From positions 23,374,001-23,438,000 of the forward strand of contig OZ024758.1 of NCBI GenBank assembly GCA_964016885.1: 64,000 nucleotides of DNA, read 5' to 3'. The notes under the pieces were generated by a model. That model worked only from the letters and a program-made list of their open reading frames with translations, did not search any database and was not told the origin of the DNA. Source of the DNA: Eledone cirrhosa. Lineage: Eukaryota. The first letter of the stretch is position 1. Each line of letters begins with the position of its first letter. Positions 20,836 to 62,600 of the stretch are shown piece by piece. The translations under genes and the position numbers were made by a program.

Positions 20836-20945
20836 ACTGCTTCTTGGCCTTTTGACTAAATTCAGAGTGAATATTTGTTCTTATCAGCTTAATATCTGAT
20901 ATGTTCCCTATTTGGGACCATCAATATTAAACTGATTTTTAGAAC
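20836..20945 (+). pseudogene. U2 snRNA pseudogene (5' part) in SS18 intron 2
   Basis: ACTGCTTCTTGGCCTTTTGACTAA...TTTGTTCTTATCAGCTTAATATCTGATATG...ATATTAAACTGATTTTTAG aligns to the U2 5' half including the Sm site; the branch-pairing GTAGTA is mutated; a SINE follows at ~20960. Confidence 0.85.
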
Positions 20946-27234: not shown

Positions 27235-27946
27235 TATAAAGTAAATCAGCTATTCTTGTTAATCCATCTAACAACCACTACTAATACCCTTCGTTAAAGA
27301 TATGCCAAATTAATCCCAGTCATGGTAATATTGATGAATCATCATCATCACCATTATTTAACACCCATTTTCCACGCTAGCATGGGTAGGGCAGGCTGTT
27401 CCTTTGTGAGACATCACGTCGGAGGACCGATAGAAATCATAAAATGTTTATTCTGCCCTGGTTATATTTTGTATTTTCTAATTGTGTCCAATTATCGATA
27501 ATCCAATGTCTATTAAATAAACATTGTTGCCTCAAAAATTGAGACAAAGTGTGAGAGTAATTGAAATTTATTAATGACATTGTTGGCTGTTGGGACACTG
27601 CATCCTTCAAAACTGCCTTCATGAAATTCGCCAACACTACGCCTGATATTCCCCCTCCATACACATGCATGTGTGTATATCATGACTCATACACTGTTCA
27701 CTTTCCTGACATTTGTACATTATTCTATGTACTTCACATTCACCTTTGATGAGTTGTAGTGCACCTGAGCACTGTACACAATAATTTTCACTATTATTAT
27801 TATTAATATTCAACTGTTTTAACAGTTATTCCTTGTGTTCTTATTTTCAAATTATTTCTATGAATTTCTAATGCCCGTTGTTTTTCTATCCCAACAAATT
27901 AATTTACTATAAAACTATAAATATTCTCTTAACTCTCCAATAGCAG

Positions 27947-28087
27947 GTAGTTCTGGTATGCCAATGACATCTGCTGGTGGTCAGCCTGGTTATAATGGAC
28001 CTCAACAATCTATGCCAGGCTATTCTCGTCCACAGATGAATCAACAACAACAGCAAGCTATGATGACTCAAGGGAAATCTCGTGCTG
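27947..28087 (+). CDS. SS18: SS18-like coding exon 5
   Basis: TAGCAG tandem acceptor (start 27944 or 27947); GSSGMPMTSAGGQPGYNGPQQSMPGYSRPQMNQQQQQAMMTQGKSRA; donor CTG|GTAATT; phase 1 to 1. Confidence 0.85.
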
Positions 28088-28118
28088 GTAATTCTGAATT
28101 TGTTGTTTTTGATTTTAA

Positions 28119-28326
28119 CCCTTTAGCATTTAAACTGGCCATATCTGGCCAGAATTCTCTCACCTCTTTCTGTTTGGACCGGTTGTAACTAGCCACTCAT
28201 ACTGATGTTAAGGTATTGTTCTCAAAATAAATAATATCAAAATCTCATAGATTCGATATTATGTAAGATAAAGCCTTTCCTGTGAAAATACAATAGAAAA
28301 TATAGAATAATGTAAATGCTAAAGGG
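28119..28326. mobile_element. piggyBac-type MITE (~210 bp), representative copy
   Basis: TTAA|CCCTTTAGCATTTA ... TAAATGCTAAAGGG|TTAA. Copies at ~18805-19178, 23203-23388, 24097-24312, 25438-25642, 31878-32268, 37573-37808, 38713-38913, 43580-43940, 44676-44893, 47803-47971. Confidence 0.88.
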
Positions 28327-29077
28327 TTAAAAGTTTTGAATATCTAAATCTGAATGTTTCTGTTTTATTGTCACTTCTTTTGAATTTGAGTTCTCTGTCC
28401 TCTGTTAGGTATTCTTTCTTTGCCTCTGTATCTGATTCTTTGATTGCCAATATGTTTATAGTACTTAGTGTTATCATATGAGTACATATCAAAATATAAT
28501 GGATATCCCTGTACATCCCATGCAAGCGTGGAAAAAAAGGACATAAAAACAATGATGATGATGATGGTGATGACTTTTCCTAGTGAAGGCATGTGGCTTA
28601 GTAGTTACGGTATTCAACTCACAATTGTCAAGTCCTGAGTTTGATTCCTGACTCAATGTGTCCTTGAGCAAGACACTTTATTTCATGTTGTTCCAGTCCA
28701 CTCAGCTTGCAAAAATGAGTTGTACCTATAATTCGAAGGGCCAGCCTTGCCACGCTGAAACTCCGTGAGAAATACATTAAGGGTGTGTGAGTCTGTTGAA
28801 TATTCAGCCACTTGCCCATTAATAACACGAGCAGGCTGTTCAGTTGATCGTATCAACTGGAACACTCGTTATTGTAACTTAACAGAGTGCCAGAGAGTAG
28901 AACAAAGAGTAGATTATGAGGTCTAGAAGATCAAATATTAGGGGTTAGTGTTTATTAGTATTAGTAAATAGAATCAACGTAAATAAAGAAAAAAGGTGTT
29001 GCTTTAGTCTAACAAATTAGTTGTGTATATATATATATGCAGGCGAATTGGCAGAGTCATTAAGACGTCGGATAGAA

Positions 29078-30478
29078 TCATCATCATCATCATCATCATC
29101 ATTTTACGTCTGCTTTTCCCTGCTTGCAAGGGTGGGACGGGAACTGATTCTGGCTTGATTTCTACAGCTGGATGCCCTTCCTAACACCAACCTCATTTAC
29201 AGTGAGTGCTGGGTGCTTTTTTGCCGTGGCCCCTCCACGTCCACTTAACAGTGAGGGCTGGGTGCTTTTTTTGCTGTGGCACCTCCACGTCCACTTTACA
29301 GTGTGGGCTGGGTGCTTTTTTGCCGTGGCCCCTCCACGTCCACTTTACAGTGTGGGCTGGGTGCTTTTTTGCCGTGGCACCTCCACGACCACTTTGCAGT
29401 GTGGGCTGGGTGCTTTTTTGCCGTGGCACCTCCACGTCCACTTTACAGTGTGGGCTGGGTGCTTTTTTGCCGTGGCCCCTCCACGTCCACTTTGCAGTGT
29501 GGGCTGGGTGCTTTTTTGCCGTGGCACCTCCACGACCACTTTACAGTGTGGGCTGGGTGCTTTTTTGCCGTGGCACCTCCACGACCACTTTGCAGTGTGG
29601 GCTGGGTGCTTTTTTGCCGTGGCCCCTCCACGTCCACTTTGCAGTGTGGGCTGGGTGCTTTTTTGCCGTGGCCCCTCCACGTCCACTTTACAGTGTGGGC
29701 TGGGTGCTTTTTTGCCGTGGCCCCTCCACGTCCACTTTGCAGTGTGGGCTGGGTGCTTTTTTGCCGTGGCACCTCCACGTCCACTTTACAGTGTGGGCTG
29801 GGTGCTTTTTTGCCGTGGCCCCTCCACGTCCACTTTGCAGTGTGGGCTGGGTGCTTTTTTGCCGTGGCACCTCCACGACCACTTTACAGTGTGGGCTGGG
29901 TGCTTTTTTGCCGTGGCACCTCCACGACCACTTTGCAGTGTGAGCTGGGTGCTTTTTTGCTGTGGCACCTCCACGACCACTTTGCAGTGTGAGCTGGGTG
30001 CTTTTTTGCCGTGGCACCTCCACGACCACTTTACAGTGTGGGCTGGGTGCTTTTTTGCCGTGGCACCTCCACGACCACTTTGCAGTGTGAGCTGGGTGCT
30101 TTTTTGCTGTGGCACCTCCACGACCACTTTGCAGTGTGAGCTGGGTGCTTTTTTGCTGTGGCACCTCCACGACCACTTTGCAGTGTGAGCTGGGTGCTTT
30201 TTTGCCGTGGCACCTCCACGACCACTTTACAGTGTGGGCTGGGTGCTTTTTTGCCGTGGCACCTCCACGACCACTTTGCAGTGTGAGCTGGGTGCTTTTT
30301 TGCTGTGGAAGGATATGGACCCCAGTCCCTATCATCTCATTTCTACAGCTGAGTAAACTGGAGCAATGTGAAATAAAGTGTCTTGCTCAAGGAAACAACA
30401 CATCACCCGGTCTGAGAATTGAACTCACAACCTTTCGATTGCAAGGCCTATGCTCTAACCACTCAGCCATGTGCCTCC
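29078..30478 (-). mobile_element. SINE family A copy with internal 49-bp VNTR expanded to ~22 units
   Basis: Normal tail (29078-29200) and head (30310-30478) enclose tandem GTGGGCTGGGTGCTTTTTTGCCGTGGCACCTCCACGACCACTTTACAGT units. Confidence 0.93.
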
Positions 30479-30749
30479 ATAGAATGCTTTCCGGTATTCT
30501 TCCCGCCTCATTGCCTGTTCTGAGCTCAAATCCCGCCGTGGGCAACGTTGCCTATCATCCTTTTGAGGTCAATAAAAAAAGTACCAGTCCACTACTGGGG
30601 TCGATTCTTCCTCTATAGAATAAATCGGCTGTGTTCAGACCTGGAGAAGGCTAGGCTCCACTCCACCAGGTTTAAAAGAGCCCTAGACATACTGTGTGAT
30701 GATGTGTCTAAGACTCCACAAGGAGTTATGGGATCTTTATCCTTTATAT

Positions 30750-30856
30750 TCGGGGTGTCCCCAAAAAATGTATACACACTTTGATGACCTGCGCAGGCAA
30801 TATTTATTAGAATGCCATTGAAGTGTGTATATATTTTTTGTGGGGGGACACCCTGT
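30750..30856. mobile_element. Short Tc1/mariner-type MITE (related copy at 10601-10680)
   Basis: GGGTGTCCCC...AAAATGTATACAC paired with GTGTATATATTTT...GGGGACACCC. Confidence 0.65.
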
Positions 30857-30909
30857 GTATTTAATGAGTAAACTGTATGTGTCATTGTGATATTGTCATA
30901 TTTTCACAG

Positions 30910-31251
30910 GTCCTCCAATGAATACTCCAAATGCTATGAACAATCAACCTGGCTATGGTCCCCCCATGTCTCAACAGCAACAAGGACCTCCTCCCCAAAG
31001 TCCACAGGGTTATCCAGGTCCACAGCAACCTATGATGTCACAACCTTCTTCAGCTCCTCCAGGGATGTCTCAGGGTCAAGCTATGCCTCCACAGCAGTCA
31101 ATGATGCAACAGAGTCAAGCTGGCAACAATCCAATGATGAGTGGTCCCTCCCCAGGACCCCCACCTTCCAATCAACCAATGGGATCACGAGCAATGCCAC
31201 CACCCAATGCCTATAGAAGATCCCCATCTCAGGGTAGGCTCAACATGCAAG
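30910..31251 (+). CDS. SS18: SS18-like coding exon 6 (QPGY-like)
   Basis: TTTTCACAG acceptor; GPPMNTPNAMNNQPGYGPPMSQQQQG...GRLNMQ; donor AAG|GTAAAG; phase 1 to 1. Confidence 0.88.
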
Positions 31252-31789
31252 GTAAAGACACTTTCGGGATTTTTATTATTATTATTTGAGAAGGACGGTA
31301 GAATGTCAGACACCATGCTTCACAGCATGGAGTTACGGCCTTTTATGTTCTGGTATCAAATCCCACCGAAGTTAGTTTTGCCTTTCGTACTTATGAAAGT
31401 ACCAGTCACTTACGTCAATTTAATTGACTTTCCCCCGTCCCCCAAAACTGCTGGCATTGTGCCTAAATCAGAAACCATTATTCGAGAAGGGCAGTACCTG
31501 TAGAGTGCCAGACATCATCCTTCGCTGCATATAGTTATGGCCTTTTATGTTCTGATTTCAAATCCTGCCGAGATTAGTTTTGCCTTTCATCCTTAATTAG
31601 CTACTTTCAGCTATTCAACTTACATCAAACTGAAAGTTAGTTCAATAATTAAATTCACTGGATTAAATATTTATTCTTCAGACGTAACCTCTTGCTTTAG
31701 AATTTAAAAACGTTTTCCAACTTGTTATGGCCTTTTGGAATGTGACATGTTTATTTGATATCGTAGAAATGCAACATTTTGCTGTAGAT

Positions 31790-32483
31790 CAGAGGTGCCC
31801 AACCACCAGGCCACAAACTGATACCAGTCCCTGGATCATTTGCTACCGGGTCGCAAAGAAATAATTTACTTGTTTAACCCTTTAGTGTTCAAACCGTCCA
31901 GAATTCTCTACCTCTTTCGGTTGAAACTGGCTGTAACTGGTCACTCAAACTGATATTAAGGTATTGTTTTGAAAATAAATACTTTCAAAATTTCATAGAT
32001 TCGATATTATGTGAGGTAAAGCCTTTACCATTAAAATATAATAGTATATATAAAATAATTGTTTCTACATTTGGCACAAAAATCCAGCAATTACCCCAGT
32101 GCATTACTGGTACTTTATTTTATCAACCCCGTAAGGATGAAATGCAAAGTTAACCTCGGCGGGATTTGAACTCAGAATAGCAAGAGTCGTAACTCTATGC
32201 TTCAAAGCATGGCGTTCGACCCTCTACCGATACTGCCAATCCACCAAAATAATGTGAATGCTAAAGGGTTAAAATTATATAATAGATAGATTGAATATTG
32301 GACTTTAATTTAAAAAGATTTGTTTAAATATTCAATATTCATCTATTTTAATAAATTGCTCTTTTTATTATTGTTCTCTTTATCAAAATGCACTTAAATA
32401 ACACATATGTGCAACTACCGGTCCGTGGAAAGATTGTCCGACATGAAGCCTGTCCATTGTATAAAAAAGGTTGGAGACTACTG
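31790..32483. mobile_element. hAT/Charlie-like MITE containing a piggyBac MITE that contains a SINE
   Basis: Ends CAGAGGTGCCCAACC / GGTTGGAGACTACTG; flanks CTGTAGAT / CTGTAAGAT resemble an 8-bp TSD. Confidence 0.7.
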
Positions 32484-33236
32484 CTGTAAGATATTTACAG
32501 TACTGTGGAACCTCGCTTTATGAAAATGCCTCTCATCGCGAATAAATCGGTTCAGGAACAATTTTTCCGAACATAAAACATCACGGTTGACAAACGGTGT
32601 CTCGAGTAATGAACACATAAGCCAGCAACAACAGTTGGTGACAAGCTGGGAGTATCAGCAGGAATGTGTCACTTGTTGTGTAGTTAGTTACTATGGTGAT
32701 ATCTATCTGTCTTTCACACACAGTCTCTCACTCTCTCTCTCTCACTGTATTTTTCTCTCAACATTTCATATGGGGAAAATAGTTTGGGTTTACGAACATT
32801 TAGATGATGTATCATCATCATCATCATCATTTCATTTTACGTCCGCTTTTTCCCTGCTTGCAAGGGCGGGACGGGAACTGATTCTGGCTTGATTTCTACA
32901 GCTGGATGCCCTTCCTAACACCAACCTCATTTACAGTGAGTGCTGGGTGCTTTTTTGACGTGGCACCTCCACGTCCACTTTGCAGTGGAATGATAGGGAC
33001 CCCAGTCCCTATCATCTCATTTCTACAGCTGAGTAAACTGGAGCAATGTGAAATAAAGTGTCTTGCTCAAGGAAACAACACATCGCCCGGTCTGAGAATT
33101 GAACTCACAACCTTTCGATTGCAAGGCCAATGCTCTAACCACTAAGCCATGTGCCTCCATGTATGTTTGCTGAAACCCTGTAGTTTTGTTTCAGTGACTG
33201 AATCTTTCTTAATATAAATCCTTTTTCTCTTGGCAG

Positions 33237-34585
33237 GTCAACAGTACAGTCAGCAGCAAGCCTATGCTCAGCAGCAATATAATTCACAGCCACCATATAC
33301 TCAGGGCCAAGGGCAGCAGTCTTATACTCAACAACCAGGCTACAGTCAATCTCCAGGACCTGGTGGAGGTCCAGCACCTGGACCTAACATGTCTCCACAA
33401 TCACAGTACTCAAACTATCCGGGTGGTGGTCAATCTCAAACACGCTATAATCCTTATAACAGACCTCAGCAAGGTCCACCAGGTATGCCGCCTTCTGGAC
33501 CTCTTCCTCCTGGTTCTATGCAAGGCCCCCCTGGTGCTATGCAAGGGCCACCCGGCTCCATGCAAGGGCCGCCCGGCTCCATGCAAGGCCCCCCTGGAGG
33601 CATGCAAGGACCACCTGGTTCCATGCAGGGACCACCTGGTGGTATGCAGGGCCCACCTGGAGCCATGCAAGGACCACCTGGTTCTATGCAGGGCCCACCC
33701 GGTGGTATGCAAGGCCCACCCGGTGGTATGCAAGGCCCACCTGGTGGTATGCAAGGACCACCCGGTGCTATGCAAGGCCCACCTGGTGCTATGCAGGGCC
33801 CACCCGGCTCTATGCAGGGCCCACCTGGTTCTATGCAAGGCCCACCCGGTGCTATGCAAGGACCACCTGGTTCAATGCAAGGACCACCTGGCTCCATGCA
33901 GGGACCACCTGGTTCGATGCAAGGCCCTCCAGGATCCATGCAGGGACCACCTGGCTCTATGCAGGGTCCACCTGGATCTATGCAAGGCCCTCCAGGATCC
34001 ATGCAAGGTCCACCAGGCTCTATGTCTGGTCCACCCGGCCCCATGTCTGGTCCACCCGGCCCCATGTCTGGTCCACCCGGTCCCATGTCTGGCCCATCCG
34101 GTCCCATGTCTGGTCCTCCCGTGTCCATGTCTGGTCCTCCGCCTGGCTCTATGTCCGGTCCTCCGCCAGTTTCCATGTCCGGCCCTCAGGGTCCGATGGG
34201 TCCCAGCGGCGGCGGGGGGCAAATGAACCCCAACAGCAATCAGATGGGCGGACAAAACCAAATGCCAGTGTCGGGAAGTAGCTCGATGCAACAGCCGAAC
34301 AGCATGAGCAACAGTGTTGTGAGTGGGGCGGGTGGTGGTGGCGGCGGAGGCGGGGGTGGAGGTGGCGGCGGCGGTGGAGGCAGCAATAGTAGTAACAGTG
34401 GGGGAGGCGGTGGCGGCGGCGGTGGTGGTGGTGGTGGTGGTGGTGGTAGTAGTGGTAGTAGTGGTGGTGGTGGTGGTGGTGGTGCTGGTGGAAGTAGCAA
34501 CAGTGGGCAGCAGTCGCACATGCCTAATAGCCAGATGTCTGGTCAGGGTCAGTCGGGTTACTCTTACAACCAAAACCAGTATTAA
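33237..34585 (+). CDS. SS18: SS18-like terminal coding exon 7 (QPGY region, heptad repeat, poly-Gly)
   Basis: CTTTTTCTCTTGGCAG acceptor, phase 1; GQQYSQQQAYAQQQY...GQGQSGYSYNQNQY, stop TAA 34583-34585. Spliced CDS is 2214 nt (737 aa). Confidence 0.88.
33506..34200 (+). repeat. Coding 21-bp repeat encoding GPPG[S/G/A/P]M[Q/S] heptads
   Basis: About 30 units in the exon 7 frame; third codon positions vary between units while the peptide is kept. Confidence 0.95.
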
Positions 34586-40960: not shown

Positions 40961-41249
40961 ATGTAAGAAAAACAGAAACATGAGGACAATTCCGCTCTTT
41001 GGCTGTCTGCCGTGGGTCGTTGATGTTTCAACGCATTAAAGACAGTACATCTCACCATAGTGCGTTAATAACTACGGGGTGTCTGGGTATTTTTGGTTTT
41101 TTTTTTTTTTCATTCCCTAATAACTACACCTTGCTGTTATTAACGTACTGTGGTGAGATGTTCTGTCTTTAATGCATCAAAACATCAGCGACCCACAGCA
41201 GACAGCCGAAGAGCAGTAATTGTCCTCATGTTTGTGTTGCTCTTATATA
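40961..41249. repeat. Hairpin element, ~120-bp inverted arms
   Basis: AAACATGAGGACAATT...GTTAATAAC pairs with GTTATTAAC...AATTGTCCTCATGTTT. Confidence 0.9.
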
Positions 41250-41665
41250 TATATCATCATCATCATCATCACCGTTTTACATCCATTTTTCCACGCTAGC
41301 ATGGGTTAGACGGGTTGTCCTGTTGTGGGCAGCGTCCAGTCGGGAACTGATTCTGGCTTGATTTCTACAGCTGGATACCCTTCCTAACACCAACCTCATT
41401 TACAGTGAGTGCAGGGTGGTTTTTTGCCGTGGCGCCTACACGTCCACTTTACAGTGTGGGCTGGGTGCTTTTTTGCAGTGGAATGATAGGGACCCCAATC
41501 TCTATCATCTCATTTCTACAGCTGAGTAAACTGGAGCAATGTGAAATAAAGTGTCTTGCTCAAGGAAACAACCCATCACTCGGTCCGAGAATTGAACTCA
41601 AAACCTTTCGATTACAAGGTCAATGCTCTAACCACTAAGCCATGCGCCTCCACATATATATATAT

Positions 41666-41911
41666 TAATAATAGAAAGGATGATTTGTTATGTCTTCATT
41701 ACATTTATTGAGTAGTTATGCACGTTTCACTATTGATCAGCTCAAGGTTCGATCCAGCCCAACTCTGAAATCAAAAACTCGTCAGACTTATGTTGTGGTA
41801 ATAGTACCACAACAGAAATTTGGTGAGCAGAGTCGGGCCGGATCGAATCTTGAGCTGATCAATAGTGAAACGTAATGAAGACATAACAAATCATCCTTTT
41901 TACTGTTATTA
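41666..41911. repeat. Hairpin element, ~80-bp inverted arms with an inner hairpin
   Basis: AAAGGATGATTTGTTATGTCTTCATTAC...GATCAGCTCAAG pairs with CTTGAGCTGATC...GTAATGAAGACATAACAAATCATCCTTT; inner TGTTGTGGTA/TACCACAACA. Confidence 0.9.
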
Positions 41912-48949: not shown

Positions 48950-49167
48950 TAGATTTCACAGCCCTAACATCACTCCTTCATGGTCAGCCTATGAACATTC
49001 CAGCCTACCCTTATATGTTTGATTGTGAAATACAGTGTGGAGTTGTCAAGGTGATGAGACATCTTTTTATAAAGTATATTTTCTCATAAATGGAGAAGTA
49101 ATTAATTTATTTAATAATTTATATCTTGCAGGTGATCCTGCCCTAAACTAAAGGTCTAGATCCAGTT

Positions 49168-49188
49168 ATGACTTCGAAAAGCATAGGC
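49168..49188 (+). CDS. Tandem DUF1330-like protein, coding exon 1
   Basis: Exon 49132-49188; ATG 49168 preceded by in-frame TAA at 49144; MTSKSIG; donor GGC|GTAAGT, phase 0. Confidence 0.6.
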
Positions 49189-50253: not shown

Positions 50254-50319
50254 GTGCAAACAAAGGATCCCTTGGCTCCAAGCACACCAATTATAAGCAG
50301 CTGGAAACGGGAGAATGTT
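50254..50319 (+). CDS. Tandem DUF1330-like protein, coding exon 2
   Basis: TTTTATTTCCTGTAG acceptor; VQTKDPLAPSTPIISSWKRENV; donor GTT|GTAAGT; 66 nt, phase 0 to 0. Confidence 0.68.
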
Positions 50320-50464
50320 GTAAGTTGTTACTTTTTCTTTTACTTTTAATTTCATTTTAAAATTTTTTTCTTTTGAGCCAACTTATGCAGCTTCATATGC
50401 AAATGAGATTAATCACCTGATTTACACAGACGAGAAAACTATATATTCTCGGCTGTCTTCTAGT

Positions 50465-50554
50465 CCAGCAGTCGCAAGTGGCGGGAGGGATCGTCCTGAC
50501 GAAGGCCAGTTAAGCCTGAAATGCATAGACGGTTGTCCCCCTTGCTTCTGCTGG
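50465..50554 (+). ncRNA. Minimal type I hammerhead ribozyme motif (Penelope-like)
   Basis: ATCGTC-CTGACGA(50496-50502)-AGGC cagttaa GCCT-GAAA(50518-50521)-TGCA-TA-GACGGT; palindromic stem III ATGCAT; stem I extends via GCAAG/CTTGC and CCAGCAG/CTGCTGG; predicted cut after 50527. Confidence 0.75.
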
Positions 50555-50967
50555 CCATCACCAGTAGGGTTGCTAGGATGCGTCCATAGGTGGTATGCTG
50601 GTGAGAAAGAGAATTTGCTTCGAAATCACTAGACGTATCTGAGGAACTTGCGAATCCAGAGTCAGGTTCTATCTACAAATAGATCGCACCTCGAGCTGTT
50701 TACCGGAGAAACAATTGTGATACGTAATAAATTGTGTTCCGATGCATCACGTTTTCCATTATTATATATATATATATATAATAGGGCGGTGGATTGGCAG
50801 TATCGGTAGAGGGTCGGACGCCATGCTTTCCAGCATAGTTACGTCCCTTTACAATCTGAGTTCAAATCCCGCCAAAGTTGACTTTGTCTTCCATCCTTAC
50901 GGGGTCGATAAAATAAAGTACCAGTAACGCACTGGGTAATTGCTGGCCTTGTGCCTAAAGTAGAAAC

Positions 50968-51001
<34 letters not shown>

Positions 51002-51140
51002 CGCCACGGAAAAAAAGCACCCAGCACTCACTGTAAATGAGGTTGGTGTTAGGAAGGGTATCCAGCTGTAGAAATCAAGCCAGAATTAGTTCCCGTCCCA
51101 CCCTTGCAAGCAGGGAAAAGCGGACGTAAAATGATGAAGA

Positions 51141-51184
<44 letters not shown>

Positions 51185-52352
51185 CATTTCATCATTTTAC
51201 GTCCGTTTTTCCCTGCTTGCAAGGGTGGGACGGGAACTAATTCTGGCTTGATTTCTACAGCTGGATGCCCTTCCTAACACCAACCTTATTTACAGTGAGT
51301 GCTGGGTGCTTTTTTGCCGTGGCGCCTGCACGTCCACTTTACGGTGTAGGCTGGGCGCTTTTTTGCCGTGGCACCTCCACGACCACTTTGCAGTGGAATG
51401 ATAGGGACCCCAGTCCAATCATCTCATTTCTACAGCTGAGTAAACTGGAGCAATGTGAAATAAAGTGTCTTGCTCAAGGAAGCAACACGTCACCCGGTCT
51501 GATATATATATATATATGGAGGCATATGGCTTAGTGGTTAGAGCATTGGCCTTACAATCGAAAGGTTGTGAGTTCAATTCTCAGACCGGGTGATGTGTTG
51601 TTTCCTTGAGCAAGACACTTTATTTCACATTGCTCCAGTTTACTCAGCTGTAGAAATGAGATGATAGGGATTGGGGTCCATATCATTCCACTGCAAAGTG
51701 GTCGTGGAGGTGCCACGGCAAAAAAGCACCCAGCACTCACTGTAAATGAGGTTGGTGTTAGGAAGGGCATCCAGCTGTAGAAATCAAGCCAGAATCAGTT
51801 CCCGTCCCACCCTTGCAAGCAGGGAAAAAGCGGACGTGAAATGAAATGATGATGATATATATATATATATATATATAAGGGTCATCTGCTCCATACAAAG
51901 CTTAACCACTTCTTGCCCTTTATGTCTGTTCCTTCCTGGCATGAGATCTCAAATGGCTGTTGAGTCCTGTAAGCCTGTGAAACTGTGAAAGACCCGTCCT
52001 TAAATAATACAATGATGTCTCATTTTGTCCTTGTTTCCACTTTGAGTTTGCTTATTGTGTATGTTCTGATGTCGCTTCAATCCACCATATATATATATAT
52101 ATTATCATCATCATCATCATCATCATTTAATGCCCATGATGATGATAGTAATATATATGGTGGTAATATATATGATGATGATAATATTATATATATGCAT
52201 GTATTATATATGCCATACAGTAATTATATATGCCTAGTACCATTGCTTGTTTCCTACCTAACTGTCCTGTATGTACCTAACGCATTTGCACTCTCTATAC
52301 GCTTGCATATGTACTGCTAGTGTCCCCGTTTTATGAGTAACTTTCTGCCTAA

Positions 52353-52642
52353 TGCCTCTTTAATTATTATACAATTCTCTTGTAATCTCTATCACATGTA
52401 TTCCACTCTGTGCCTCTTTAATTATTATACAATTCTCTTGTAATCTCTGTCACATCCACGCCACTCTGTGCCTCTTTAATTATTATACAATTCTCTTGTA
52501 ATCTCTATCACATCCACTCCACTCTGTGCCTCTTTAATTATTATACAATTCTCTTGTAATCTCTATCACATGTATTCCACTCTGTGCCTCTTTAATTATT
52601 ATACAATTCTCTTGTAATCTCTGTCACATCCACTCCACTCTG
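52353..52642. repeat. 58-bp tandem repeat, 5 copies
   Basis: TGCCTCTTTAATTATTATACAATTCTC at 52353, 52411, 52469 and onward. Confidence 0.93.
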
Positions 52643-52994
52643 TAAATACGAAACTGTTGATGATAACATTAATATCAATGTATCTATATGATTGTTCAGT
52701 TGAATAGGAAGTGAATTATATGTCCAAACTTTGCTAGTGCTCCTATGATTCCAAACGAAAGTTTGGAAGAAACGATTGTCAGCAATAAAATGATTTGAAC
52801 ATAACATTGATATTTGTGTAATTTATATTCCTGCTCTGTAAAACATCTGATGTATTTACATTGAGCTATTTTTCTTACTGGTAATAAGGTAGTAATGAAT
52901 TACTGACCTTTCCTGTTTACAGTTGTATATAGTGTATATATAACTATAAATAATATTATATATATATATATATATATTTTTTTTTTTTTTGCAG

Positions 52995-53132
52995 TTTCCT
53001 GCAGCTGTAAAAGAAGTTTATGTAATTTTTCGTTATGGATCTGAAAGTAAACAAAGCTTTCGCAATGCCTGGGTTTTACAGCAGAAAATCATCAATAATT
53101 ATGGTGGAAAATATGTCGGATTTTCAGACAAA
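52995..53132 (+). CDS. Tandem DUF1330-like protein, coding exon 3
   Basis: Poly-T GCAG acceptor; FPAAVKEVYVIFRYGSESKQSFRNAWVLQQKIINNYGGKYVGFSDK; donor AAA|GTGAGA; phase 0 to 0. YGGKY resembles the DUF1330 YGGRF motif. Confidence 0.82.
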
Positions 53133-53989: not shown

Positions 53990-54158
53990 ATTACTTGCTT
54001 GGAGAAGTCTGACTGGCCCAGTAACTACTGCATTGTACTGCTCTGTTTCTCCAGTCTTGAGCAAGCCGTACGTTGGATAAACAGTGATAGGGTTTTTAAA
54101 CAGCAGGACATGGAATATGAAGCATTTGTTGTCCCTTTACAATATATTCCTCATATAG
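53990..54158 (+). CDS. Tandem DUF1330-like protein, coding exon 4
   Basis: CTAAC branch point and pyrimidine tract CAG; ITCLEKSDWPSNYCIVLLCFSSLEQAVRWINSDRVFKQQDMEYEAFVVPLQYIPHI; donor TAG|GTGAGA; phase 0 to 1. Matches the LEGDW...VVIEFPSxEAAxAWYNS pattern. Confidence 0.85.
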
Positions 54159-54939
54159 GTGAGATATTTTCTTTGAGATATTGTTATTGAATCCTAAGTA
54201 AAAGGTTGGACTGGGTACTTTTTCACCGTGTCACCTGCAGGACCTCCTTACAAGAATGGACTGGGTGCTTTTTGTCATGTCACCAACATGATCACTTTAC
54301 AGGGTGGACTAGATGCTATGTGTTGTATCACCAGCGTGACCACCTTACAGAGTGAACTGGGTGCTTTTTACCATGTCACCAACACAACCACTTTACAGGG
54401 TTGACTGGATGATTTTTGTTGTAACATCAACACGACTACTTTACAGAGTGGACTGGGTGCTTATTTGTCATGTCACCAATACGACCACCTTACTGGGTGA
54501 ACTGGGTGACTTTTGTCGTGGGAAAGAAGACATTCACACTCAATCTCACACCACATGGGGTGCTGGAGCTTCTCTCTAATAATTTTTTAGGCAAGCCAAT
54601 ACATTCAGAGCATTGCCACAGATGATAGCGAGGCTAAGATGTTGGAATAACCAAGCACCCTCATGGACATTGCCCAATACTTTGGTAAAGCCAGCCACCA
54701 ATGATGACAAGAACTTCATTGTCAATAGAACAGCTACCCCAAAAGTCTCCAGCACCACAAGCTGAAAAAGATAGTTTGCCAATAATTCTGGAACAGAAAT
54801 TACTGGTTAAGATTCTTGTATCCCAGCCCATCAGCAACACATTTAATTTACCAAATATATAACATTTGACCTAATTCATTATTGTTTTAATGCCAACAGT
54901 TAAATTCTGCTTCATAATGTGAATCAAAGAAGAAAGATG

Positions 54940-57355
54940 CATACATTACATATATACATTACATTACATATATACATTACATTACATATATACATTACAT
55001 TACATATATACATTACATTACATATATACATTACATTACATATATACATTACATTTTATATATACATTACATTACATATATACATTACATTACATATATA
55101 CATTACATTTTATATATACATTACATTACATATATACATTACATTACATATATACATTACATTTTATATATACATTACATTACATATATACATTACATTA
55201 CATATATACATTACATTTTATATATACATTACATTACATATATACATTACATTACATATATACATTACATTACATATATACATTACATTTCATATATACA
55301 TTACATTTTATATATACATTACATTACATATATACATTACATTACATATATACATTACATTACATATATACATTACATTACATATATACATTACATTTTA
55401 TATATACATTACATTACATATATACATTACATTACCTATATACATTACATTACATATATACATTACATTACATATATACATTACATTTTATATATACATT
55501 ACATTACATATATACATTACATTTTATATATACATTACATTACATATATACATTACATTACATATATACATTACATTTTATATATACATTACATTACATA
55601 TATACATTACATTACATATATACATTACATTACATATATACATTACATTTTATATATACATTACATTACATATATACATTACATTACCTATATACATTAC
55701 ATTACATATATACATTACATTACATATATACATTACATTTTATATATACATTACATTACCTATATACATTACATTTTATATATACATTACATTACATATA
55801 TACATTACATTTTATATATACATTACATTACATATATACATTACATTTTATATATACATTACATTACATATATACATTACATTACATATATACATTACAT
55901 TACATATATACATTACATTTTATATATACATTACATTACATATATACATTACATTTCATATATACATTACATTTTATATATACATTACATTACATATATA
56001 CATTACATTTCATATATACATTACATTTTATATATACATTACATTACATATATACATTACATTACATATATACATTACATTACATATATACATTACATTA
56101 CATATATACATTACATTACATATATACATTACATTACATATATACATTACATTACATATATACATTACATTTTATATATACATTACATTACATATATACA
56201 TTACATTACATATATACATTACATTACATATATACATTACATTTTATATATACATTACATTACATATATACATTACATTACATATATACATTACATTACA
56301 TATATACATTACATTTTATATATACATTACATTACATATATACATTACATTTTATATATACATTACATTACCTATATACATCACATTACATATATACATT
56401 ACATTACATATATACATTACATTACATATATACATTACATTACATATATACATTACATTTTATATATACATTACATTTTATATATATACATTACATTTTA
56501 TATATACATTACATTTTATATATACATTACATTACATGTATACATTACATTTTATATATACATTACATTACATATATACATTACATTTTATATATACATT
56601 ACATTACATATATACATTACATTACATATATACATTACATTACATATATACATTACATTTTATATATACATTACATTTTATATATACATTACATTTCATA
56701 TATACATTACATTACCTATATACATTACATTACATATATACATTACATTTTATATATACATTACATTTTATATATACATTACATTACATATATACATTAC
56801 ATTACATATATACATTACATTTTATATATACATTACATTACATATATACATTACATTACATATATACATTACATTTTATATATACATTACATTACATATA
56901 TACATTACATTACATATATACATTACATTACATATATACATTACATTACATATATACATTACATTACATATATACATTACATTACATATATACATTACAT
57001 TACATATATACATTACATTACATATATACATTACATTTTATATATACATTACATTACATATATACATTACATATATACATTACATTTTATATATACATTA
57101 CATTACATATATACATTACATTACATATATACATTACATTACATATATACATTACATTTTATATATACATTACATTACATATATACATTACATTACATAT
57201 ATACATTACATTTTATATATACATTACATTACATATATACATTACATTACATATATACATTACATTTTATATATACATTACATTACATATATACATTACA
57301 TTACATATATACATTACATTACATATATACATTACATTACATATATACATTATAT
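54940..57355. repeat. 18-bp satellite (ATATATACATTACATTAC), ~130 copies, in gene 2 intron
   Basis: Near-perfect 18-bp period with variants ending TTTT, TTTC or ACCT; explains the spurious 835-aa ORF. Confidence 0.98.
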
Positions 57356-57483
57356 TATATGCATACATTACTTACAAATATAATATTTTCTATAACACTC
57401 ATATGTGCATATATATATATATATAGTTGAAAAAAAATGAAAACGAAATTTCATTTCTCACTCTTAGTATGGCACTTACTTAA

Positions 57484-57538
57484 ATGTAAGTATGTATGTA
57501 TACGTACATACATATATGTATACAGACGTACAGTAGCA

Positions 57539-57588
<50 letters not shown>

Positions 57589-57998
57589 TATATACACATG
57601 CATACAGGTACACATACATATATGCACGCATCAGTTTAGCCTACGTTTATTATAACGCCGGCCGCTTTGTTCGTTTGTTTGTCAACAAAGCGAACAGCCT
57701 GAATTTATGCCATACGGTGTTAAGGCAACCACGTCACCTTTTTGTTCAACACTGACACAGGAACGATGTACTAGTTTCAAGCTTGTTAGCTATCATCAGC
57801 ACCGTTTACCCATCTGCCAGATAGTTGAACGTTCGAAAGTATATACTTTCCTTATGAAAATTAACGGCTGAGCAGCCTAATTTGCATATTGAGTGAGTTA
57901 AATCGGTCAGGCATACCGAAAACGATTAGTTGAAAAAAAAACGTAGGCTAAACTGATGCGTGCATATATGTATGTGTACCTGTATGCATGTGTGTATA

Positions 57999-58070
<72 letters not shown>

Positions 58071-58125
58071 TGCTACTGTACGTCTGTATACATATATGTA
58101 TGTACGTATACATACATACTTACAT
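57484..58125. mobile_element. Fold-back element: ~165-185 bp near-perfect inverted arms around a 290-bp hammerhead-containing spacer
   Basis: 57484-57648 is the reverse complement of 57939-58125 apart from (TA)n length. Confidence 0.9.
57762..57806 (-). ncRNA. Minimal type I hammerhead ribozyme motif (Penelope-like)
   Basis: Minus strand reads AACGGTG-CTGATGA-TAGC taacaa GCTT-GAAA-CTAG-TA-CATCGTT; 7-bp stem I with one G-U; palindromic stem III ACTAGT; GUA triplet; U-U mismatch at the base of stem II. Confidence 0.75.
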
Positions 58126-58147
58126 ATATATATATATATTTATATTT

Positions 58148-58346
58148 AAGAGGGTCAGCTGAAAGATCCATAGGCTGACCAAGATACTCTCATGGAATGA
58201 CCAAATGAGGTTTATTTTTCAACATAGTCCCTGGAAAGAAACAATGCTGTTATTAATAAGAAGAGTTAAAATTAATGCATGCAAGATTTCACAGTCCTAG
58301 CATCACTCCTTCATAGTCAGCCTATGAACTTTTCATTCGACCCATG
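58148..58346. mobile_element. Mariner-like MITE (second copy at ~48530-49015 carries a SINE)
   Basis: Terminal inverted repeats CATAGGCTGAC / GTCAGCCTATG; internal sequence shared with the 48530 copy. Confidence 0.75.
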
Positions 58347-58406
58347 TATTTGAAGATTATAATCTTCCATGTTGCATCTCTCTTTCCCATTTGTGCTCTT
58401 CACCAG

Positions 58407-58649
58407 AATATAAAACATTTATGATGATGGAAGTTGATCTACAATATCCAGATGAATTAATTTCCAAGTTTGAGAAAGAGTATGTGAAACCTGCCTCAGT
58501 CTCAATGGATAAATTTGAAGTCGCTCATGGTGTTGTTGCTTCTAGTAGCATTAATCTGCTCAGACAGACCACCTGGAATATTCAAAGCAAAACTATAGTT
58601 GTGCACCAATTCAAGTCAGATAAGCACTTCTGGGAATTTTATCAAAGCA
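58407..58649 (+). CDS. Tandem DUF1330-like protein, coding exon 5
   Basis: CTCTTCACCAG acceptor; EYKTFMMMEVDLQYPDELISKFEKEYVKP...IVVHQFKSDKHFWEFYQS; donor GCA|GTAAGT; phase 1 to 1. Confidence 0.85.
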
Positions 58650-59281
58650 GTAAGTGAATATTTTATCTAATGGCTATCATTATCAACTTTTAGTGGATTG
58701 GCAGTATCGGTAGAGGGTCGGACGCCATGCTTTCCAGCATAGTTACGTCCCTTTACGATCTGAGTTCAAATCCCGCCGAGGTTGACTTTGCCTTTCATCC
58801 TTTACGGGGTCGATAAAATAAAGTACCAGTAATGCACTGGATAATTGCTGGCCTTGTGCCTAAAGTATAAACAATTATCAACTTTTAGTGTTGTTGTCAT
58901 CATCTACCATACAACATATCACCATATAATCCTGATACCTGATTATCTCCCTTTATCTTATGTCTTTTGCCTTTCTCTTCCATTAAATAATTGTTTCTAC
59001 GTTTGGCACAAGACCAGTAATTACCCCAGTGCATTCATTACTGAAGGCCAGTAATTTGGGGGAGGGAAAAATCGATTAAATCGACCTCAGTATGTTACTG
59101 GTACTTTATTTTATCGACCCCCGTAAGGGCAAAAAGGCAAAGTTAACCTCGGCAGGATTTGAACTCAGACCGTAAAGGACCATAACTCTATGCTGCAAAG
59201 CATGGTGTCTGACTCTCTACCAATACTGCCACTCCACCGCCCTTCCATTAAATAATAATAATGAAAATTATTGTGTACAAT

Positions 59282-59510
59282 CAGACCTACCAACTTCTAA
59301 AAACCCAAACAGTGAGTACCATGAAAAAAAAGTGCCCCAAAACGGGGAGAAATGAGGCAAAATGGGGAGATTTTACATAATGAAAGCTATACCCATTTTC
59401 ACAAGAGAAGACATCTTGCAACTACCCCAAAGCAGGTGGGAGATCTCCCCGTCAGCCAGCACTTATTTTCATAGTACTCCCCACTTGGGTTTTTAGAGGT
59501 TAGCAGGTCT
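59282..59510. mobile_element. hAT-like MITE (related copy at ~15052-15221)
   Basis: TIRs CAGACCTACCAAC / GTTAGCAGGTCTG; interior matches the reverse complement of 15070-15221; no clear TSD. Confidence 0.7.
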
Positions 59511-60221
59511 GCATTGTCACACACACACACATACACACATCATCATTCATCATCATCATTTCATTTTACGTCCGCTTTTTCCCTACTTGCAAGGGTGGGA
59601 CGGGAACTGATTCTGGCTTGATTTCTACAGCTGGATGCCCTTCCTAACACCAACCTCATTTACAGTGAGTGCTGGGTGCTTTTTTGCTGTGGCACCTCCA
59701 CGACCACTTTGCAGTGGAATTATAGGGACCTCAGTCCCTATCATCTCATTTCTACAGCTGAGTAAACTGGAGTAATGTGAAATAAAGTGTCTTGCTCAAG
59801 GAAACAACACATCACCCAGTCTGGGAATTGAACTCACAACCTTTCGATTGCAAGGCCAATGCTCTAACCATATATATATATATAGATATATATATATATA
59901 TCAAATGAAAAACGGAGTTAAAGACTCACGTTAATCCACTGTAATTTAATGAGCTCAAGGAATAAGTACCAAGCTTTTCATAATACAGTATATAGAGAAG
60001 AAAACACAAAAAGGGTATGTTTTCAATTATGATTTGGTTCCTAATTTCTTTATGTTAGTTGAGCTTTTTAAGTTGAATGGTTATAGGCTGCCATTTCTAG
60101 CGGTTTCTTGATTCATTCAAGCCACTATGTACTATCTGGTGCGCATGTTTTCGTTTCTCTCACCGTGTGCGATATTTCAGTTGCCTAAAGTCTCTTTAGA
60201 AGTGTTGACGGTATCTTCTTT

Positions 60222-60306
60222 ACACCTGCTGATGAGCCCTGAGAAGTTATGGCACCAACATTGTCTATGGCGAAACATTCTCTTCTTTTTGAGTTTGTCC
60301 AGGTGT
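60222..60306 (+). ncRNA. Type I hammerhead ribozyme motif with GUC cleavage triplet
   Basis: ACACCTG-CTGATGA(60229-60235)-GCC...GGC-GAAA(60272-60275)-CA tt CTC...GAG tt TG-TC-CAGGTGT; perfect 7-bp stem I, complete catalytic core, predicted cut after 60299. Confidence 0.8.
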
Positions 60307-60462
60307 TTTATAGTTACAAAGGTGGGTCTGTACACTTTAATTTACCTTTTTAATTATTATGTATTTTCCACACTTTTCGAAGACTTTCTGTTCTTCATTC
60401 TAGTGGCTCCTTACCCCTCGTAATTGAAAACACACACACACATACATATATTTATTTATATA

Positions 60463-60507
<45 letters not shown>

Positions 60508-60589
60508 CCCCGTCCCACCCAATCCACACCGCCCCTTTCAATGAAAAGTTATGTTGGTGCCACAACATCCAGGCCGAAACAAATGAGAT

Positions 60590-61068
60590 CGTGTAGGTGT
60601 CACGACAAAAAACACACAGTCCACGCTGTAAATGTGGCCGTGTAGGCAACACGGTAAAAACCTCCCATCCCCACACTGTAAATGTGGTTGATGTTAGGAA
60701 GGGCATCCAGCTGTAGAAAACCCGCCAGACAGTCCACGCTGTAATGTGGCCGTGTAGGCAACACGGTAAAAACCTCCCAGCCCCACACTGTAAATGTGGT
60801 TGATGTTAGGAAGGGCATCCAGCTGTAGAAAACCCGCCAGACAGTCCACGCTGTAATGTGGCCGTGTAGGCAACACGGTAAAAACCTCCCAGCCCCACAC
60901 TGTAAATGTGCTTGGTGTTAGGAAGGGCATCCAGCTGTAGAAAACCCACCAGACAGTCCTATGCGAGCAAGACAATCACTCTTGCCTCAAGTGGGAAAAC
61001 CCCCGTCCAAACCCATGCAAGCGTGGAACACGGACGTTAAACGTTGATGATGATGATGATGATGATGA
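60590..61068 (+). mobile_element. Headless relative of SINE A with a ~112-bp tandem triplication
   Basis: ACAGTCCACGCTGTAA at 60616, 60729, 60841; TAGGAAGGGCATCCAGCTGTAGAAA and (ATG)n tail. Relatives at 19710, 24785, 43125, 46985(-), 54205(-), 61690. Confidence 0.8.
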
Positions 61069-61307
61069 TATTTATAGTGAAGGCGTGTGGCTGAGTGGTT
61101 AGAGAATTGGATTCGCAATCGTAAGGTTGTGAGTTCGATTCCTGGACCAGGCAATGCATTATGTCCGTGAGCAAGACACTTTATTTCACGTTGCTCCTTC
61201 TACCTGGAGTTGCGACCGATAGATAGTATTAGCAATTGGACAGACCAACGGAAACATTGTTTCCTCAGTCCGATTTGACGAAAGTCGATTGTTCCTTATA
61301 TATATTT

Positions 61308-61648
61308 ATAACTAAATGAAAAAGATCTATGTATATATATAGAGAGAAACAGCCATATATTGTTTAAGAAACAATCGTATAAGAAACACGGTATATTGTA
61401 TATATTTCAAATACATATTCTATAGAAGAATATGTACACAGGTGGAATCATAAGTGAAACTTTATAGTGATATTTCATACCTGGAGAGTGTAGCTCAAAA
61501 TCAATATGTAATCGATCATTAAAAAAAAATCAATCAATATAATCGATCATTGAAGACAAACTATTGATTATGATTAAACACATCAGACTCAGGTACTCTA
61601 TATGGCTCCTTCTCTCTATATATAGATATATCTTTTTCATTTGGTTAT
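61308..61648. mobile_element. MITE-like element with ~50-bp terminal inverted repeats
   Basis: ATAACTAAATGAAAAAGAT...AGCCATATA pairs with TATATGGCT...ATCTTTTTCATTTGGTTAT. Confidence 0.75.
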
Positions 61649-62499
61649 TATGGCTCTAGATGTTTATTGAGAAACACAAAATTCTAAACACACTGTAAAG
61701 TGATCCTGTAGGTGTAAAGACAAAAAGCACCCAACTTACACAGTAAAGTGGTCATATAGATTACACAACGAAAAGCGCCCAGGCCACACTGTAAAGTGGT
61801 CATATAGATTACACAACGAACTGTAAAGTGATCCTGTAGATGTCACGGCAAAAAGTGCCCAGCTTAACACAGTAAAGTGATCCTGTAGGTGTCACGGCAA
61901 AAAGTGCCCAGCTTAACACAGTAAAGTGATCCTGTAGGTGTCACGACAAAAAGCGCCCAACTTACACAGTAAAGTGATCCTGTAGGTAACACAACAAAAA
62001 GCGCCCAGCCCACACTATAAATGTGAGTGATGTTAAGAAAGGCATCCAGCTGTAGAAACCAAGCCAAAATTAGTCCTGTATGAGGAAGTCATGGTCATTG
62101 GACCTGGCCTGTCTCACAACAGGGCAACTCATCTAACCCATGCTAACGTGGAAAAATGGACGTTAAACAATGATGATGATGATTTCATGTAATGCACTGG
62201 GTAATTGCTGGCCTTGTGCCTAAAGTAGAAACAATTATTTGTATATATATATAGGGCGGTAGATTGGCAGTATCGGTAGAGGGTCGGACGCCATGCTTTG
62301 ACCCCATAGAGTTACGGCCCTTGCCATTCTGAGTTCAAATCCTGCCGAGGTTAACTTTGCCTTTCATCCTTACGAGGTCGATAAAATAAAGTACCAGTAA
62401 TGCACTGGGTAATTGCTGGCCTTGTGCCTAACGTAGAAACAATTATTTGTATATATATATATATATATATATATTTATGTTGTATCTTTTATTTTTCAG

Positions 62500-62600
62500 C
62501 TGACTACCAAAACTTAATTGATATCAGAAACAGCATGTACCAAACAAACGTGGTTATGTTTTCTCTTGTTAATGACCCTCCTCTTTTTAGTAAGGGTTAA
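62500..62600 (+). CDS. Tandem DUF1330-like protein, terminal coding exon 6
   Basis: ATTTTTCAG acceptor, phase 1; TDYQNLIDIRNSMYQTNVVMFSLVNDPPLFSKG, stop TAA. Completes FYQSTDYQNLIDIR, like the DUF1330 WYNSPEYQxxxxxR motif. Total CDS is 738 nt (245 aa). Confidence 0.82.

Follow-up and report, generated by a model that had tools for sequence, protein, structure and literature searches.

The described systems closest to the locus reported here are the hammerhead ribozymes of Penelope-like elements (PLEs) with a C-terminal endonuclease (Neptune, Penelope/Poseidon and Hydra), which are type I motifs lying in sense orientation within the 3′ UTR, close to the element's own 3′ terminus (PMC4209133, PMC8557442). 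Craig et al. (2021, PMC8557442) describe canonical hammerheads as universal among C-terminal-endonuclease PLEs, Hydra included; those of the Hydra clade occupy the sense strand, nearly all at about 75-430 nt from the 3′ end, and (TA)n is given as the target, also in the case of Hydra-1_Obim of Octopus bimaculoides. According to Cervera and de la Pena (2014, PMC4209133), most such motifs stand alone as what is left of truncated PLEs, and PLEs are reported to be common and expanded in Octopus vulgaris (PMC13282606). Two further groups are relevant, namely the non-LTR retrozymes, short non-coding units with one type I hammerhead in animal genomes (PMC7229834; bioRxiv 10.64898/2026.07.22.740005), and the pseudoknotted hammerheads, with a short stem II and a long stem III (PMC3088659; Rfam RF03152, RAGATH-1-hammerhead).

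We analysed a window of 64,000 nucleotides from Eledone cirrhosa (assembly GCA_964016885.1, contig OZ024758.1, positions 23,374,001 to 23,438,000 of the forward strand; positions below are counted from its first letter), for which a preliminary description had reported an intact hammerhead ribozyme at 60222-60306. The locus has in common with the C-terminal-endonuclease PLEs the type I layout, the sense orientation, the placement in a 3′ UTR near a 3′ end, the (TA)n target and the G10.1-C11.1 pair, and its putative coding remnant is nearest to the endonuclease end of Neptune and Naiad elements. It differs from them in comprising only one terminal unit, without an RT. Typical animal PLE ribozymes have a long stem II and a small loop, whereas the locus has a 3-bp stem II under a 30-nt loop; unlike the minimal, dimer-type metazoan PLE hammerhead, which has an extra base after A9 and a stem III that is absent or short and palindromic, it has no base between A9 and G10.1 and a long, non-palindromic stem III (PMC4209133). 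It resembles the non-LTR retrozymes in being a short non-coding unit with a single type I hammerhead and, like the mollusc examples of these, lacks the archetypal loop contacts; in contrast to them it is not tandem, measures about 530 bp and keeps an apparent trace of an endonuclease frame. With the pseudoknotted hammerheads it shares the proportions of stems II and III, as well as a putative helix between loop II and the stem I side, extendable here to 21 bp with a predicted inhibitory effect. We consider it probable that this type I hammerhead was brought into an intronic (TA)n run by the 3′ end of a PLE and that its cleavage is too slow to alter splicing much, the ribozyme being likely an ordinary passenger.

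A type I hammerhead in the last intron of a DUF1330 gene

Six exons on the plus strand, separated by GT-AG introns, join into one open frame.

49132-49188, 50254-50319, 52995-53132, 53990-54158, 58407-58649 and 62500-62600, plus strand: exons of the DUF1330 gene, with GT-AG boundaries
58407-58649, plus strand: penultimate coding exon, with an open frame and a homologue match
62500-62600, plus strand: last coding exon, running to the stop codon
58650-62499, plus strand: last coding intron (GT..AG)

With the penultimate exon as query, two proteins were recovered among 19 candidates, from Octopus bimaculoides (71% identical) and Argonauta hians (58%), and both carry PF07045 (DUF1330); the assignment of the gene follows the precomputed domains and the names of these two homologues, Pfam searches with single exons having given no match. 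The O. bimaculoides DUF1330 protein (P0001) mapped to five of the six exons, in order and with the last exon included. These ordered matches identify 58650-62499 as the last coding intron and place the motif on the pre-mRNA strand, bearing out the sense orientation and last-intron location originally proposed. The ribozyme lies 1650 nt from the 5′ splice site and 2200 nt from the 3′ splice site, and neither the reading frame of the host gene nor its splice sites are disrupted. The preceding intron of the gene (54159-58406) contains an AT-rich short-unit satellite of ~2.4 kb at about 54940-57350 and, as judged by eye, a long inverted duplication around a 240-bp core at about 57480-58130.

The motif itself, like its strand, intron and flanks, could be read directly from the DNA and is composed as follows.

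60222-60306, plus strand: type I hammerhead ribozyme; core 60229-60235 and 60272-60275; predicted cut after C60299
60236-60271, plus strand: stem II (3 bp, with G10.1-C11.1) and 30-nt loop II (60239-60268)
60275-60298, plus strand: stem III; 3 bp, 2×2 U·U loop, 3 bp, 8-nt loop; not palindromic

Positions C3-A9 (60229-60235) and G12-A15.1 (60272-60275) show no deviation from the hammerhead consensus, taken as C3 U4 G5 A6 N7 G8 A9, G12 A13 A14 A15, U16 H17 (PMC3088659). G10.1-C11.1 corresponds to 60236/60271 and the cleavage triplet G16.2-U16.1-C17 to GUC at 60297-60299, with the cut predicted at 60299/60300. Stem I (60222-60228 with 60300-60306) was read as Watson-Crick in 7 of 7 pairs, with no canonical bulge beyond them, and stem II, closed by G-C, has only three contiguous pairs (60236-60238/60269-60271). 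In stem III, 60275-60277 pair with 60296-60298 and, beyond the U·U loop, 60280-60282 with 60291-60293, the same pairing as that in the cmscan alignment. Three stems adjoining the core (7, 3 and 3+3 bp), with stem I open, are the layout of a type I hammerhead. The complete core, the perfect 7-bp stem I and the short but real stem III of the preliminary description were all confirmed; its G-C closed stem II is indeed closed by G-C, although that account had left out that the stem is only 3 bp long under a 30-nt loop.

A type-CSG, non-circularly permuted hammerhead (PMC10085705) was also considered and rejected, the partner of stem I being absent from loop II; by reading, the sole partner of the stem I 5′ strand follows GUC 60297-60299, after the GAAA block. 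Such an arrangement may exist elsewhere: three nematode Naiad 3′ ends in the PMC8557442 supplement, which have split cores, look by eye like complete type-CSG hammerheads as outlined in PMC10085705, with the stem I and stem III partners in loop II, a stem II of 3-4 bp and, again by eye, a helix of 9-12 bp between the 5′ flank and loop II. In PMC8557442 the split-core Naiad cases are termed HHR_half_core and Naiads are said to lack canonical hammerheads. A literature search for permuted hammerheads in Naiads found no paper, and this observation is possibly of greater interest than the octopus intron hammerhead.

The Rfam search of the window returned no hammerhead at the gathering score, and the motif did not reach the gathering cut-off of the hammerhead families of clan CL00010. 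Its best sub-threshold matches were to HH9 (12.9 bits, cut-off 52), in which the core and the stem I-proximal bases align, and to RAGATH-1-hammerhead (16.2 bits, cut-off 56.3); weak scores over a short stretch are as expected, because loop II is long. A chance match in intronic DNA would agree with the missing Rfam match at gathering score and with the failure to find relatives. However, an equal motif, with seven Watson-Crick pairs in stem I and at least 3 bp in each of stems II and III, was reached by the type I descriptor in none of 3242 block-wise dinucleotide shuffles of the whole window, and an independent endonuclease-end motif stands at the expected place and strand (see below), which leaves chance with next to no probability. 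With G-U pairs permitted, 3 of the 3242 shuffles reached the motif, and 1 of 200 did so in a separate smaller shuffle run.

On the window itself the type I descriptor yielded two motifs, that at 60222-60306 and a minimal one with C3 at 50496. The latter (50489-50534, plus strand) is a hammerhead of the minimal PLE type lying in sense in intron 50320-52994 of the DUF1330 gene, with a 7-bp stem I containing G-U pairs, a 4-bp stem II, a palindromic six-base stem III and an AUA site with a predicted cut after 50527; a (TA)n run lies about 230 nt downstream, and the motif had no Rfam match.

The sense strand, the last intron and the intact core would also suit a domesticated regulatory ribozyme comparable to the amniote intronic hammerheads RECK/HH9 and C10orf118/HH10, in which the helix between the 5′ flank and loop II described below would act as an on-off switch, and there are precedents for such ribozymes in PMC3088659, PMC6155905 and PMC10919898. 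The amniote ribozymes, the HDV-like CPEB3 among them, occupy the same strand of their introns but are conserved, whereas the motif of the locus is still embedded in a likely transposon end. It stands among young-looking simple and SINE-like repeats with the flanks of the element still attached, and the second, minimal hammerhead in another intron of the gene suggests frequent insertions. We therefore regard domestication as very improbable.

Other elements in the window

An inverted repeat at 41663-41911 (arms 41663-41767 and 41828-41911, 89-93% complementary) adjoins a TA run, has a degenerate hammerhead core inside it, on the minus strand at 41785, and resembles the inverted pseudo-LTR arrangement of PLE insertions. 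A second inverted repeat, at 40961-41248, is MITE-like, with arms of 89 and 31 nt that are 85-87% complementary. A U2 snRNA match at 20836-20953 on the plus strand (70.6 bits) is without the 3′ part and is likely a pseudogene. The exons of another gene (gene 1, 27913-34585, plus strand) abound in Q, P, G, Y and M and include a long repeat of the GPPGSMQ type; we take this gene to resemble SS18/CREST, and its exons had no Pfam match.

The surrounding segment probably represents the 3′ end of a PLE

The ribozyme stands in a segment delimited by simple repeats.

59902-60430, plus strand (that of the gene): likely 3′ end (pseudo-LTR part) of a 5′-truncated PLE
59870-59901, no strand: (TA)n left flank by repeat reading, likely the target site
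60430-60504, no strand: right flank, (CA)n at 60430-60441 followed by TA-rich DNA at 60442-60504
59900-59965, plus strand: broken remnant like the C-terminus of a PLE GIY-YIG endonuclease (L-K-T-x3-P-x2-F-N-E)

The segment measures 530 bp, with (TA)n on its left and (CA)n plus TA-rich DNA on its right, in agreement with the roughly 520 bp bounded by (TA)n of the preliminary description. The ribozyme starts 264 nt after the terminal stop of the remnant and ends 124 nt before the right repeat, so that it lies in sense close to the 3′ terminus, as do the hammerheads of PLE 3′ ends. Insertion into (TA)n is likewise a property of PLEs, but (TA)n is common in this genome and this property is weak when taken alone. 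To the left of the segment, a SINE-like repeat (59568-59869) appears by eye to run directly into the TA array and to be ~18 nt shorter than other copies (cf. 41620-41650).

The remnant spans about 20 residues, one of them extra, and is interrupted by stops at codons 3 and 15, where the Neptune and Naiad rows show W and G, before it ends with the terminal stop at codon 22. The endonuclease-end pattern, which was derived from the Neptune and Naiad rows in the PMC8557442 supplement and loosened once the sequence had been seen, has a single occurrence in the six frames of the window, at 59918 on the strand of the ribozyme. Shuffling of the 322-nt stretch produced it on the sense strand in 6 of 20000 trials, and in 1 of 20000 when followed by an acidic residue. 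A protein search with the remnant, with X at the stops, recovered no relative (none of 3 candidates). This endonuclease-like remnant appears to be good circumstantial support for a PLE origin rather than proof of it.

Self-BLAST and repeat searches of the segment detected no second copy in the window, in which it is therefore present once; the repeat search also revealed no terminal direct repeat and no target-site duplication apart from TA. An RT frame and a second pseudo-LTR are absent from the locus, as would be expected for a 5′-truncated copy, and we accordingly file it as a likely fragment and not as a full element. A 103-codon plus-strand frame over the ribozyme had no Pfam match and no match among 1.84 billion protein representatives, and a 54-codon minus-strand frame used to search for further copies gave none among 4 candidates; as evidence about relatives, the blanks from these stray frames and from the remnant are weak. 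As possible sources, the consensus ends of three octopus Naiads and the ribozyme of Hydra-1_Obim were rejected as unlike the segment, a comparison made by eye only.

A 5′-truncated PLE end, an identity that the preliminary description did not give, is likely the simplest reading of the segment and would account for the presence of the motif without any host function. In the course of events that we infer, the element would derive from the 3′ end of a PLE RNA, copied into an intronic (TA)n run, with a truncation just inside the end of the endonuclease frame that left the 3′ UTR and the ribozyme, whose original job would have been to cut the element's own transcript.

A solo unit derived from a pseudo-LTR fits the segment nearly as well. 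Taken further, the copy would be a non-autonomous, retrozyme-like insertion whose monomer is a dead end, tandem copies elsewhere making the circular RNA, and whose endonuclease remnant decayed in the founder as selection for mobility kept the ribozyme. A broken coding remnant beside a perfect ribozyme is what selection on the RNA only would leave, and animal retrozymes are reported to derive from PLE pseudo-LTRs and to leave dispersed monomers (bioRxiv 10.64898/2026.07.22.740005), with units of 350-390 bp in a mussel family (PMC7229834). Yet no tandem unit exists at the locus, its 530 bp exceed the 170-400 nt reported in PMC7229834, and an intact ribozyme in a decayed copy may reflect ascertainment, only intact ones being noticed. 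We judge this origin unlikely; its effect on the host would be the same as that of a truncated PLE end.

Predicted folding and cleavage competence

Nested folding with ViennaRNA, whose models leave out pseudoknots and core contacts, disfavoured the active structure. In 60222-60306, the models predict pairing between the core bases 60231-60237 and the cleavage strand 60293-60299 with P=0.92, against P=0.003 for the active fold; over five sequence lengths the active fold represented 0.2-0.3% of the nested ensemble at 37 °C, and a still lower share at 25 and 15 °C. The distal stem II remained below P=0.01 in every transcription prefix examined. A proximal register of stem II, created by the duplication described below, was set aside as minor (P 0.02-0.03).

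For calibration, 126 prokaryotic loci with a hammerhead-like pattern were collected and 123 matches were scored after removal of duplicates of passing motifs, 102 passing and 21 failing a type I or type III descriptor (the descriptors cover these two types only). The active fold of the motif cost 3.5 kcal/mol, against medians of 0.4 kcal/mol for the 23 type I and 1.45 kcal/mol for the 79 type III controls, which are predicted motifs selected for compact 4-bp stems II. A cost of at least 3.6 kcal/mol was found for 4 of the 102 controls and, with 20-nt flanks, for 21 of them, the motif then costing 3.8 kcal/mol. By these models the motif is in the poor tail of the control range, yet inside it, and its fold penalty is not unique.

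These predictions bear on the earlier suggestion that the ribozyme could cleave as a monomer. Its structural part stands, as a single copy can make all three stems and its stem III differs from the palindromic dimer type, whereas in silico the folds that hide the core dominate. The preliminary description had itself named a dominant fold sequestering the core as speaking against cleavage, and this is what the models return, both for the motif alone and, with the flank included, as a 21-bp hairpin. Because the models omit pseudoknots and core contacts, and because a short pseudoknot may rescue the active fold, the claim is lowered rather than abandoned, and monomer cleavage appears possible in principle. 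Loop contacts are described as required at cellular Mg2+ (PMC6155905), and among animal type I ribozymes a coral example with canonical contacts was measured to cleave co-transcriptionally at about 0.8 per min, and a mussel example lacking them at about 0.1 per min (PMC7229834).

A putative helix between the 5′ flank and loop II

Two features of the ribozyme and its flank, neither of them noted in the preliminary description, involve loop II.

60197-60220, plus strand: 5′ flank complementary to loop II (60241-60267), 21 possible pairs, predicted only
60248-60282, plus strand: imperfect 18-nt tandem duplication in the ribozyme (60248-60265 against 60266-60282, 14 of 18 matches)

With a 25-nt flank, the duplex with loop II reaches -18 kcal/mol, which was matched by 7 and 10 of 3000 shuffles. 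The proximal part, 60211-60220 with 60241-60250, holds an antiparallel helix of 6 bp (5 of them Watson-Crick) that is separated by 1 nt from stem I and by 2 nt from stem II and was matched in 473 of 20000 double shuffles. The signal of this complementarity is moderate: flanks of 12, 20, 25 and 30 nt were matched by 325, 39, 7 and 19 of 3000 shuffles (eight tests), and 152 of 9121 unrelated 20-nt windows pair equally well with loop II. Pairing of loop II with loop III (213-732 of 2000 shuffles) and with the 3′ flank (553-1967 of 2000) was at chance level, and both were rejected.

In the models, the 6-9 flank pairs adjoining stem I could form an activating pseudoknot. At this place about 40% of natural hammerheads are reported to carry a pseudoknot, in many cases beside a very short stem II (PMC3088659), and the combination is credited with cleavage above 1.2 per min at 0.5 mM Mg2+ (Perreault et al., PMC3088659); if it were real here, the 3-bp stem II would be by design and not by decay. 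The full 21-bp helix, in contrast, would block stem II, since its length would hold the strands of stem II far apart, and is predicted to be more stable than the short pseudoknot. In nested folds that include the 5′ flank the 21-bp hairpin wins, and prefix folding predicts that the flank/loop II helix forms first during transcription. Rough totals, obtained with assumed penalty values and subject to an error of several kcal/mol, were -19 to -21 kcal/mol for the active pseudoknot, -25.7 for the nested flank hairpin and about -30 for an inactive pseudoknot.

These data allow a fast pseudoknotted monomer to be weighed, in which the flank/loop II helix is the stem I-II contact and quick cutting of the nascent intron lowers or redirects splicing of the last exon. 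The proximal helix is well placed, the 3′ flank shows nothing comparable to the -18 kcal/mol duplex, the core bases and stem I are all perfect, and such contacts are frequent among natural hammerheads. Against this, the significance of the pairing varies with flank length, unrelated windows pair as well, most of the signal comes from distal pairs not plainly compatible with stem II, and the rough totals favour the inactive folds. We consider a fast monomer unlikely.

The tandem duplication is itself marked, its score having been reached by none of 500 shuffles. Loop II minus the duplication measures 12 nt, so that the long loop may be a later accident, and, as the duplication and the distal pairing occupy the same bases, one of the two may be coincidence.

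Expected effect on splicing

At the polymerase speed of 3.5-4.1 kb/min given for mammals (PMC10919898), the 2200 nt to the 3′ splice site mean that the last exon would be reached about 35 s after the ribozyme; in a cold animal, one or two minutes would be our estimate. With ~1 min available before the last exon is made, cleavage would have to proceed with a half-life of about that length to influence splicing. Fast intronic ribozymes are reported to reduce splicing and slow ones not to (PMC10919898, citing Fong et al. 2009), and the minority share of the predicted active fold puts this copy on the likely slow side. Slow cleavage is thus likely by the models, and the proposal of the preliminary description that the ribozyme affects splicing to the last exon appears weak. 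Of the retrozyme copies in two Xenopus species, 42-44% are reported as intronic, though depleted for intron size (bioRxiv 10.64898/2026.07.22.740005).

Under the passenger reading that we favour, the predicted course of folding would be as follows. During transcription of the intron the 5′ flank would pair first with loop II, and later the core could pair with the cleavage strand, both states hiding the active site. Only a small fraction of transcripts would undergo cleavage at 60299/60300 within the ~1 min before the last exon appears; the remaining ones would be spliced normally, and later cuts would fall on the excised intron.

Significance

Hammerheads carried by PLEs as type I motifs and hammerheads in introns are both already known kinds. 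Within the literature collection searched, the sole items on hammerheads in octopus or cephalopods were Craig et al. (2021) and a paper on twister ribozymes, and the PLE family of this segment may be undescribed so far. In this single copy, the predicted shape of the motif departs from the usual animal PLE form and leans to the pseudoknotted forms. A bolder version, in which the segment belongs to an undescribed Neptune-like cephalopod PLE family whose hammerhead acts as a monomer by means of a flank/loop II pseudoknot that also serves as a switch (on at 6-9 bp, off at 21 bp) and whose sense copies cleave host introns quickly enough to tune last-exon splicing, strikes us as speculative and distinctly improbable.

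If the ribozyme is a passenger, as we favour, it matters little, being one more PLE-borne hammerhead, of unusual shape, from animals in which hardly any ribozymes have been described. Should the pseudoknot be real, the locus would hold a monomer-competent animal PLE ribozyme and would offer a direct test of what PLE hammerheads do, a role termed unclear in PMC8557442. If the nascent intron is also cut, it would represent a natural, transposon-supplied control of splicing in an invertebrate, comparable with CPEB3.
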